Shown here in pieces: positions 3,001 through 6,000 of a stretch of 64,000 bases of DNA. A program made the position numbers. Location: assembly GCF_058153355.1 (NCBI RefSeq), contig NZ_CM177019.1; one strand, given 5' to 3'. Each line of letters opens with the position of its first letter. The stretch's first letter is position 1.

Positions 3001-6000
3001 CGCCATACCATCGATAAAGCTGTTTACCGTCGCTTCGTCGTAGTTGGTGGTAAATGAAGTGGTTAGCCACAGGCCGAAGGACCACGCGGGCGGCAGCGCC
3101 GGACGACCAGTAAAACGGGTATAACGATCAAGTACCGCTTTCGGCGTCGGGCCGTCGATAACAAAGTATTCGAGATATTCACTCTCAACGCTGAACTGCA
3201 CTTTGGAGACTTTCTCCGATCCCACTTCAAAAGAGACGCATTGGGGATGATTGACCAGTACACCATAACCACGGTTAGTCATATAGAACGGGATATTTTT
3301 ATACGCCTGTTCAGTACTTGTGCCGCCGTCCCGGTTCCAGGTCTCTACCGTCTGGCCATTGCGCACCAGGGCAGTAAAGCGCTCTCCCAGACCGTAAACT
3401 GTTTCGCCAACGCCAAGATCCAGCCGCTCAAACATATAATTTCGTTGATTATTCGTGTCCTGCACGTAGCCATTATTTTTCACCTGACTACCGGTAATAC
3501 GTTCGCCGTTGCGCAGAAAATCCAGTGACCAGAACTCACCTTTGCTGACACGCGCACTTAAGTTGCCACTTTTAAACTCAGCGTAACGTTCTGTGTTTTC
3601 GATTGTGACCTTCACGTCCTGCAAAATATTGAGCGGGTAATGAGGACCGTTATTCAGCGCCCCCTGAAAATGCTCAATCCGTACACCGACAATACCTTCC
3701 TGTGGGGAGAAAAAGCGCAGCGTAAATAAAGGCGTATCAAGCTGCCAGGTACGTTCACGCACATCACGGGGGGCAGCATAGACCACCATTTCATTACCCT
3801 GCTGTTCAACCTCGAACACCTGAAGCGGGTGAATCAAATTGAGGCCAGGTTGAATCAACCAGTTTCCGTCGCTAATTTTCATTGCCGTTCCTTAGTTCTG
3901 CACTTCTTGAGAGGTGAATTGTTGCTGGCAACGGCGTTTGCCCTGGGCCAGCTGTTCCATAACGGTTTTCAGATTGTGCGTCGTGAGTGAGTAGTAGCGT
4001 TTAGCGATAATCGCGCTCAGCAAGTAACAGATCGCCGGAACAATCGTGAATAGCGCGATAATGATGCTAATCGTGGCGCTGTTCTGCGCTTTTTCTGCCG
4101 CATCATATCAGCCATAAGCCAGCATCCAGCCGATAAGAGCGCCGCCGAAGGCCAACCCCAGTTTGAGCACAAACAACGTGCCAGCAAAACTGATCCCGGT
4201 CAGGCGTTTACCATTGCACCACTCGCCGTAGTCGACGGTATCGGACATCATTACCCACTGGATAGGTGTCACCAGTTGATGCAACACACCAATCACGAAG
4301 ATGAAGACAAACATGGTGATGCTGGCCTGCATAGGAACAAAGAACATCGCCAGGCTAATCACTGCCAGCAGGGCGTTCGTCCACCAGAAGATAGTGACTT
4401 TACATTTCCAGTCGGTCAGCGGTTTCGCCAGTGCGGACCCAATCAGGTTACCCACGCAATAAGTGGTAAGAAAAGCGACAAACACTTCCGGCGTACCCAA
4501 AATCCATGTGACGTAATACATCATCGCCCCGCCGCGTACGCACACCGCCAGAATATTGAAAATGGTCAGGAAACCGACAATACGCCACTGGTCGTTTTGC
4601 CAGATATCACGTAAATCTTCCCGCATAGACGTCGTTGTAGGTGGTGCTTCAACGCGTTCTTTAGTGGTGAAGAAACAAAATGCCAGCATCATAAATGCCA
4701 CCACGGAAAGGACCGCGATACCGCCCTGGAAACCGAGTGGTTTATTATCACCACCAATTAAATTAACCAGCGGCATCATCAGCACAGTAGAGAGCATGCC
4801 TCCCGCGGTCGCCAGCACAAAACGCCAGGATTGCAGCGAGATACGCTGAGTCGGGTCATTGGTGATTACACCACCCAATGCGCAGTAAGGGATATTGACG
4901 ACGGTATAAAGTAAGGTAAGTAGGGTGTAACTAATTGCTGCATAAATCATTTTTCCGTTCATACTGAGATCTGGCGTGCTATAGGCCAGTACACAGACGA
5001 TCCCGAATGGCAGTGCGCCAAACAGTACCCATGGACGAAATTTACCCCAGCGAGAGCGCGTTCGATCGGCCAACAACCCCATGCAAGGATCGGAAATCGC
5101 ATCCAGTGCACGAGCGACCAAAAACATGGTTCCGACAAATCCGGCAGGAATGCCAAAAATATCGGTATAAAAGAACATCATATATAATATTACGTTATCG
5201 AAAATAATGTGGCTGGCGGCGTCTCCCATGCCATAACCAATTTTCTCTTTAACGGACAACACTTCACTCTTCATCTGCTTTTCCTTGATGCTATAGGGGT
5301 GCTGAGACCGATAACGCATTTTGTAAACCATCCCTGTGAGAGCGAATATTCCGATATCTGGTTATTAATTTATGATTCTTGTTTTATGTGATCGTGGTAG
5401 CGTAAATTACGCTCATATATCATTGTAAAGTATGGGTTTTATATGAACTATAATGCTTTCGTGATAATACGCTGCATGTATTAGGCGGAAAAAACTGATC
5501 TGGGGGATGTAGAAACTCAAGGAAGTAGCTATAATGCGCCCCGCCTCCATGTAGCAATCGAGGCGCGGAAGATCGTCGTCTCCGGTGAGGCGGCTGGACT
5601 TCAAATCCAGTTGGGGCCGCCAGCGGTCCCGGGCAGGTTCGACTCCTGTGATCTTCCGCCAGTTTGCCTCTACTGACGTTCTCCAACCCCTTGTAATACA
5701 GTCAATCCAGATATTTTCTACTGCTCAATATTTAATCGGCTTCAGGAATACCTGATCAAAGGTTTTGTGATGGACGATGAGCGACTGAAGAATCCGCCTG
5801 TCGGTTCTTCTGTCCTCGAACGCATCCGCGATATTCGCGCCAGCATGCGCCGTGTTTATTTGCAGGTGATTTGCCCCCACTGCTGACTCTCAGCCAACTG
5901 TATCGCCATTAAGGTGAAGATGTTGTTTTACACGCCCCAAAACACCCTTTTTTCATACGACGATTCTATTCCTTTAACCGCTGGCGAAAAAAACTGACCT

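Follow-up and report, generated by a model that had tools for sequence, protein, structure and literature searches.

The Escherichia coli selenoprotein genes fdhF, fdnG, and fdoG each have an in-frame UGA within a long open reading frame, and their recoding depends on a downstream element, the SECIS, and on SelB. The E. coli SECIS is a 17-nt upper stem-loop at positions 15–31 (counting the U of UGA as 1); SelB depends on a bulged U17 together with G23 and U24 of the apical loop, and UGA decoding is lost when U17 or G23 is mutated (PMC8659212). Under a looser description of bacterial SECIS elements, the distance to the loop is 16–37 nt (PMC10778597). The yicJ gene described here resembles the three selenoprotein genes in having an in-frame UGA within a long open reading frame, a hairpin somewhere downstream, and selC, the tRNA-Sec gene, in the same genome.

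UGA is the leakiest stop codon, with readthrough that increases at low temperature and with cAMP status. In a reporter assay in K-12 BW25113, readthrough of UGA was about 2% at 37 °C and 4% at 25 °C (PMC10570021). A U at position +4 is associated with the lowest readthrough (PMC5289835).

Strain-specific nonsense pseudogenes of E. coli metabolic and transport genes, such as glvG in K-12, have one in-frame disruption in an otherwise full-length, collinear gene, a sense codon at that site in relatives, intact neighbours, and no recoding signal, and yicJ is like them in each of these respects. A structurally described relative of YicJ is MelB of the GPH family (PDB 4M64, 7L17), with which it has the 12-TM MFS fold in common. 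The product of the adjacent yicI is an alpha-xylosidase of family GH31 whose substrates are xyloglucan oligosaccharides (Okuyama 2004 and Carneiro 2022, as cited in PMC11157272). According to the same secondary account, strains deleted for yicJI reached a lower yield in stationary phase and were less fit in competition (Reperant 2011, via PMC11157272).

Here, we analysed yicJ in a 64-kb stretch of E. coli DNA (64,000 nucleotides of contig NZ_CM177019.1, assembly GCF_058153355.1; hereafter, the window). The gene is interrupted by a stop at codon 389 (G389*), which we regard with high confidence as a private, recent, pseudogenising nonsense mutation. It is an ordinary gene-inactivating change.

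The yicJ locus

On the minus strand of the window, yicJ starts with the ATG at 5274..5272 and runs through 388 sense codons, the last of which is GGC at 4113..4111 (...LAYG). It then meets TGA at 4108..4110 (codon 389) and continues in the same frame for 71 sense codons at 4107..3895 (YDAAEKAQ...SQEVQN), up to TAA at 3894..3892. The initial annotation had described an uninterrupted frame of 388 and 71 codons on the two sides of the TGA, and translation of the minus strand bore this out. The total of 460 codon positions plus a stop, which had been put forward as the length of intact YicJ, is indeed that of the K-12 gene (NP_418114.4, 1383 bp). As judged from translation, NCBIfam, and hydropathy, the 5' part (4111..5274) codes for TM1–TM11 of a GPH family transporter; the 3' remnant (3892..4107), with its 71 sense codons and TAA, is now untranslated.

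The in-frame TGA splitting yicJ is no chance pattern, since both halves align without gaps to full-length yicJ and to the NCBIfam equivalog model NF008526 (460 positions). All 1383 of 1383 bp could be aligned, gapless, to yicJ of 5,415 of the 5,426 complete E. coli genomes, with a top identity of 99.7%. The NF008526 score was 1051.1 bits when Gly was restored at codon 389 and 897.6 bits for the 388-aa product, so that even the latter exceeds the equivalog cut-off of 836 bits for the YicJ orthologue group. The surroundings are those of the YicJ group as well: yicI lies directly downstream and selC is divergent upstream, with the order and spacing of K-12. The gene order yicI-yicJ-selC-setC-yicL-nlpA is the same in the window, in K-12, and in the nearest genomes. 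The spacing to yicI, anticipated to be 10 bp, corresponds to a 9-nt spacer (an offset of 10), as in K-12.

Origin and distribution of the stop codon

The yicJ alleles of strains 2020CK-00188 and R32_14_1F are the nearest to that of the window and were used for codon-by-codon comparison. Codon 389 is GGA in both strains, and K-12 and Escherichia sp. MOD1-EC7003 have the same codon. At window position 4110, a G-to-T transversion changed this GGA (Gly389) to the premature opal stop TGA at 4108..4110 (minus strand), the stop being characterised by the codon comparison and by 33-mer searches. A GGA-to-TGA change in an otherwise intact gene had been guessed from the window alone, with an alignment to yicJ of K-12 and other strains proposed as a check; that alignment gave GGA as the ancestral codon, and the rest of the gene is intact. 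Orthologues ending naturally at residue 388, the outcome that would have spoken against such a guess, were not found, and the relatives examined carry Gly. As expected of a nonsense pseudogene, the gene thus combines a gapless full-length alignment to its orthologues with a sense codon at the stop position in its relatives.

The window yicJ differs from the nearest alleles by four substitutions, including the one that creates the stop. The other three, also private and all on the minus strand, are the nonsynonymous changes M29I (ATG>ATA, 5188) and T115S (ACT>AGT, 4931) and a synonymous change at G279 (GGT>GGG, 4438); they were identified by comparison with the nearest alleles and searched for with allele-specific 33-mers. 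Across the 213 nt 3' of the stop, the window and the nearest alleles are identical, in keeping with a recent mutation.

We assessed the rarity of the T allele by megablast, using 33 bp with the T in the middle as the query. Since no 28-base seed fits in this query without covering the T, any match would represent a shared allele. Even with the threshold relaxed to E ≤ 10, the search gave no match among the 5,426 complete E. coli genomes. The G-centred control 33-mer was present exactly in 5,404 of the same 5,426 genomes; at most about 16 complete genomes carry some other variant within the 33-mer. A 69-bp query with the T had no exact match in any complete E. coli genome, and the T-bearing 33-mer was absent from one-genome-per-species representatives. 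A degenerate peptide pattern scan of genome contigs matched only one genome, and the cross-species codon data are thin. Allele-specific 33-mers for the M29I, T115S, and G279 changes had no match in complete E. coli genomes; the ancestral control for these three sites matched 5,420 genomes, and in 4,899 of these every one of the three pieces was present. G389* is private to one E. coli lineage among the genomes compared. Compared to known E. coli nonsense pseudogenes, it stands apart in that the allele occurs in none of the 5,426 complete genomes or the species representatives. The T allele combined with M29I, T115S, and the synonymous G279 change is a possible lineage marker for a rare E. coli clone.

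The only records of the exact 388-aa product are 2–3 contigs that Logan assembled from public read sets. One of these, from SRR31441161, is 100% identical to the window across 7,167 bp; the Logan contigs may share the isolate or even the read set with the window and so may not be independent of it. The NCBI pipeline issues no protein for a pseudogene, and the absence of the 388-aa product from NCBI protein records thus means little.

Neighbouring genes and selection

In the list of open reading frames, yicI (1564..3882, minus strand) is an intact GH31 alpha-xylosidase gene of 772 aa. Its ATG is at 3882, preceded by its own Shine-Dalgarno-like AAGGAA at 3888..3893. The protein is 99.87% identical to the nearest reference and has no stop, and the best DNA identity to a complete genome was 99.6%. 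Elsewhere in the same window, another gene carries a homopolymer A7>A6 frameshift.

The integrity of the remaining genes was assessed using tblastn, with all annotated K-12 proteins from nlpA to yidE and those of the nearest genome from the frz regulator to eilA as queries. All K-12 core genes in the 64-kb window other than yicJ are intact, which makes the yicJ lesion an isolated one. Shigella-like genome decay was also considered and was rejected on these grounds.

The density of SNPs relative to the best match was 0.29% in yicJ vs about 0.4% in yicI. It is not elevated in yicJ, and the whole lineage lies approximately 0.3–0.4% from its sequenced relatives. The private yicJ changes comprise three nonsynonymous and one synonymous, close to the 77% nonsynonymous expected without selection. 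Fisher tests of yicJ against the flanking genes gave p = 0.015 with one reference and p = 0.6 with another. The signal of relaxed selection in yicJ is weak.

The truncated transporter

Hydropathy placed TM11 at approximately 360–388 and TM12 at approximately 400–423 (peak 405–417). The product thus reaches no further than the periplasmic end of TM11, and what is lost from YicJ is the periplasmic loop 11–12, TM12, and the cytoplasmic tail; complete 12-TM coding capacity is no longer present in the window yicJ. The 388-aa product covers positions 1–388 of 460 in NF008526 and 1–380 of 437 in TIGR00792. Because the profile reaches only position 388 of 460 and TM12 lies past the stop, we class the locus as a pseudogene of the YicJ family and not as a functional member of it. 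As an MFS/GPH carrier requires the full 6+6 helix bundle, the truncated YicJ is most likely non-functional.

YicJ could be aligned to Salmonella MelB (4M64) over residues 6–446 (E = 8e-55). Equivalent residues of YicJ and MelB are K371 and K377 (helix XI), G389 and G395, Y390 and Y396, P413 and P418, and R426–Y428 (RYY) and R431–Y433. The lost YicJ segment aligns to MelB residues 395–451. Unlike MelB, the window YicJ stops at the residue corresponding to MelB 394 and has no loop 11–12, helix XII, or tail. The 12-helix fold of MelB has four peripheral helices, helix XII among them (PMC8437787). In a complete Cys scan of MelB, the positions with loss of function or poor transport include Y396 and P398 in loop 11–12, P418 and Y429 in helix XII, and Y433, and the 433–437 linker is also sensitive to Cys replacement (PMC8437787). 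Judging from the MelB data and MFS architecture, the truncated YicJ would most likely be misfolded, unstable, or incapable of transport.

We also considered a split gene with reinitiation, and rejected it. The ATG ATG just past the TGA is out of frame, and no in-frame restart was found after the yicJ stop before the TTG at codon 418, which lies in TM12 and has no Shine-Dalgarno sequence.

Comparison with SECIS elements

The divergent neighbour of yicJ is selC (5567..5661, plus strand; tRNA-Sec, anticodon UCA), detected by ARAGORN and by Rfam RF01852 (83.8 bits) and identical to selC of K-12; selA, selB, and selD lie outside the window. As yicJ adjoins selC in E. coli generally, the adjacency is uninformative. 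It is found in K-12 and every relative examined. The initial annotation had called it probably coincidental, and this proved sound: the adjacency is ancestral synteny, coincidental to the mutation.

A scan of positions 3700–5800 against Rfam (E ≤ 10) returned only tRNA-Sec and three sub-threshold chance matches, although Rfam may lack bacterial SECIS models. For this reason, the yicJ site was compared directly with fdhF codon 140, fdnG codon 196, and fdoG codon 196 as positive controls. All three controls have UGA-C, GGU at positions 15–17, and G/A-GUC at 22–25, and fold as expected. At the yicJ site, positions 15–31 read AGAAAAAGCGCAGAACA and are unstructured, with A17, C23, and G24 in the place of U, G, and U, contrary to the SECIS rule. 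The stop context is UGA-U vs UGA-C in genuine recoded E. coli sites; the 17-nt stem-loop with its bulged U17 and loop G23/U24, present in fdhF, fdnG, and fdoG, has no counterpart in yicJ. The yicJ UGA further differs from those of the three selenoproteins in being conserved in no relative.

A search for a SECIS-like hairpin had been suggested, and a small hairpin is present (GCGC/AGAACA/GCGC, −5.3 kcal/mol). Its loop lies 22 nt past the UGA, and the SelB-contact bases are absent from it. Local RNA folding gave z = −1.46 for a 76-nt window and z = −2.83 for a 56-nt window starting at the UGA. Both the hairpin and the longer stem (z = −2.83) are unchanged in the ancestral GGA allele. Since the two stems are the same in that allele and in thousands of Gly-reading genomes, they are unlinked to the mutation, and nothing has evolved here for recoding. 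Neither UGA nor Cys is conserved at the homologous position, which is Gly in all relatives examined and in MelB.

Alternative explanations

The caveat of UGA recoding or readthrough that accompanied the initial annotation found no support in these comparisons. Were the UGA read by Sec-tRNA(Sec) and SelB via a downstream SECIS, YicJ would be a selenoprotein, and the adjacent, intact selC and the hairpin loop at 22 nt, inside the 16–37 nt range (PMC10778597), would both fit. However, that hairpin and the longer stem are shared with the GGA allele and thousands of Gly-reading genomes, and the adjacency to selC is ancestral. The site has A17, C23, and G24 in an unstructured 15–31 segment, whereas fdhF, fdnG, and fdoG all have the determinants. 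The homologous residue in MelB is a Gly at a loop/helix boundary without a redox role, and no SECIS family was reported by Rfam, with the reservation about its models given above. Selenocysteine recoding of the yicJ UGA appears essentially refuted; to the extent that sequence analysis allows, it is excluded, and the probability we would still attach to it is negligible. The locus is a useful negative example: an in-frame TGA beside selC is suggestive, yet the adjacency is ancestral and the site departs from the SECIS rules on every count. A functionally meaningful leaky stop, at which readthrough by near-cognate Trp-tRNA gives a useful YicJ G389W and the gene is attenuated but not dead, would be in keeping with the 71 intact downstream codons and with the readthrough of about 2% (37 °C) and 4% (25 °C) in the K-12 BW25113 reporter (PMC10570021). 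Against it, the +4 U is the context of lowest readthrough (PMC5289835) and genuine recoded E. coli UGAs have C. With basal UGA readthrough of only about 2–4%, at most traces of full-length YicJ G389W are expected, and a few percent of an already weakly expressed transporter with Gly changed to Trp at a position conserved to MelB is unlikely to restore function. Non-K-12 E. coli strains, moreover, generally have a more active RF2. The stop is conserved in no relative; together, its UGA-U context and its absence from all relatives compared give no indication of programmed readthrough. No suppressor tRNA was found in the 64-kb window, where selC is the sole tRNA gene. We consider a functional leaky stop very improbable. 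Even less credible is a UGA kept as a leaky stop for regulation: most of the product would be the 11-TM form, full-length YicJ(G389W) would make up a small share that varies with conditions, and the uptake of alpha-xylosides and, by translational coupling, the expression of yicI would be tuned in this way.

A sequencing or assembly error would mean that the true base at 4110 is G and that yicJ is intact. The T allele is in no complete genome and no species-representative genome, as would be the case for a one-off error, and the A7>A6 homopolymer frameshift in another gene of the window could hint at an imperfect consensus. The change in yicJ is nevertheless a substitution, in non-repetitive sequence, and no indel in a homopolymer run. 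The 2–3 Logan contigs likewise encode the exact 388-aa product, with one contig matching the window at every base across 7,167 bp, and the three further private substitutions in yicJ point to a distinct lineage rather than a single stray base. An artefact at 4110 is unlikely in view of the non-repetitive context, the read-level assemblies, and the three other private SNPs, and we hold an intact yicJ with G at this position to be quite improbable. Adaptive loss, i.e., inactivation of yicJ selected in the niche of the lineage instead of neutral decay, is compatible with G389* being a pseudogenising mutation, the two readings differing solely in why the allele became fixed. Of the four private yicJ changes, three alter the protein, and transporter loss is in general a common adaptive route. 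In contrast, deletion of yicJI carried the costs in yield and competitive fitness described above (Reperant 2011, as reported in PMC11157272), and it was plasmid-borne yicJ, not its loss, that conferred tolerance to Bac8c and heat (PMC3561415). Virtually all of the 5,426 genomes have kept the ancestral 33-mer, which argues for general retention, and papers mentioning yicJ in cefiderocol and Bac8c contexts gave no evidence that its loss is beneficial. Selection is not demonstrable from one lineage, and we regard adaptive loss as unlikely.

Probable consequences for the operon

On the reading of G389* as a pseudogenising mutation, a recent, lineage-private G-to-T transversion turned Gly389 GGA into an opal TGA in yicJ. 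Translation ends at UGA-U, yielding a 388-residue product ending at TM11. This truncated YicJ would most likely lose transport, which would make yicJ a young pseudogene in the lineage and would leave the cytoplasmic enzyme encoded by the intact yicI without its cognate importer. In addition, 225 nt of mRNA upstream of yicI are now untranslated, with a loss of translational coupling, possibly Rho-dependent polarity, and perhaps lowered yicI expression. The sequence shows the mutation itself, its ancestral state and rarity, the lack of recoding signals, and the protein segments that are missing; the loss of transport and a change in the expression of yicI are what we infer from it. The 225 nt that have become untranslated contain 27.6% C and 22.7% G, and their maximal C/G ratio is 1.67 vs 2.5 gene-wide, which is unremarkable for Rho loading. 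A promoter and terminator scan found no match to the sigma-70 consensus, and its terminator-like matches were weak. A polar effect on yicI is speculation, given the unremarkable composition of the 225 nt and the AAGGAA motif that yicI has of its own.

We suggest annotating yicJ of this strain as a pseudogene with an internal stop (Gly389>opal). The yicJI module for the utilisation of alpha-xylosides (xyloglucan fragments) should be scored as probably defective despite the intact yicI. Beyond annotation, the nonsense allele matters little. The window also differs from K-12 in glvG, a gene of this chromosomal region: here glvG is intact and yicJ broken, the reverse of the K-12 state.

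Surroundings of the yicJI operon

The position following yicI is occupied by yicH in K-12 and by a gene for a BglG-family antiterminator in the window (1..1269, minus strand). In the nearest genome, the genes coming next after this antiterminator encode PTS fructose-type IIA, IIB and IIC components. We consider that the antiterminator probably belongs to the frz operon, which is associated with ExPEC, and the strain may therefore combine an operon that contributes to fitness with a disrupted yicJ.

The draft genome of Escherichia sp. MOD1-EC7003 has an intact yicJ, but its yicI ORF (L013, 9085..11079) terminates prematurely (664 aa) and has a divergent C-terminus, which suggests a frameshift in yicI. 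Such a frameshift would represent either an independent lesion affecting the yicJI operon or an error of the draft assembly.

The 388-aa YicJ fragment falls into a 90%-identity protein cluster that includes 772-aa YicI alpha-xylosidases as well and has a YicI as its representative. This co-clustering is presumably an artefact, perhaps caused by fused yicJ-yicI gene calls, and cluster-level names for the 388-aa fragment are therefore unreliable.

Type III secretion-associated genes

The interval between yicS and nepI contains an island with a T3SS translocator/chaperone set (9550..28030), with nothing at this position in K-12. The island carries SycD-like, YopB/SseC-like and IpaD-like genes, eilA (HilA family), and iatC, which encodes an inverse autotransporter of 3,128 aa (17254..26640, minus strand) and contains internal tandem repeats of approximately 291 bp each.

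The needle-tip gene of the IpaD/SipD family, from the eip/ETT2-associated island (13849..15299, plus strand), differs in two respects from that of E. coli 2020CK-00188. It possesses a 105-bp in-frame insertion (14391..14495), and a homopolymer contraction from A7 to A6 at approximately 15080-15086 shifts the frame. The ORF stops at 15117, giving 422 aa, and the final 73 residues are legible in a different frame. The frameshift represents either a second pseudogene or a homopolymer sequencing error.

Other loci in the window

An insertion relative to K-12 was located between uhpA and ilvN (44800..48250). Both of its minus-strand ORFs, of 495 aa (44951..46438) and 383 aa (46690..47841), lacked a match to any NCBIfam model at E ≤ 1e-10.

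The interval between adeD and uhpT harbors an accessory sugar cluster (32791..39723) comprising genes for a LacI-family regulator, a PTS cellobiose-type IIC component, a GH1 beta-glucosidase and a LamB-like porin. One border is formed by a second yicS-like copy, which is degenerate and interrupted by an in-frame stop (32791..33009), and the other by a second yicN-like paralogue with 85% amino acid identity (39274..39723). The arrangement looks like a duplication-bounded insertion.

In the glv region (58621..61820, minus strand), glvG is whole (440 aa) in the window, whereas it is a pseudogene in K-12, the opposite of the yicJ case. A single 625-aa ORF covers glvC and glvB together, while in K-12 these are annotated as separate genes.
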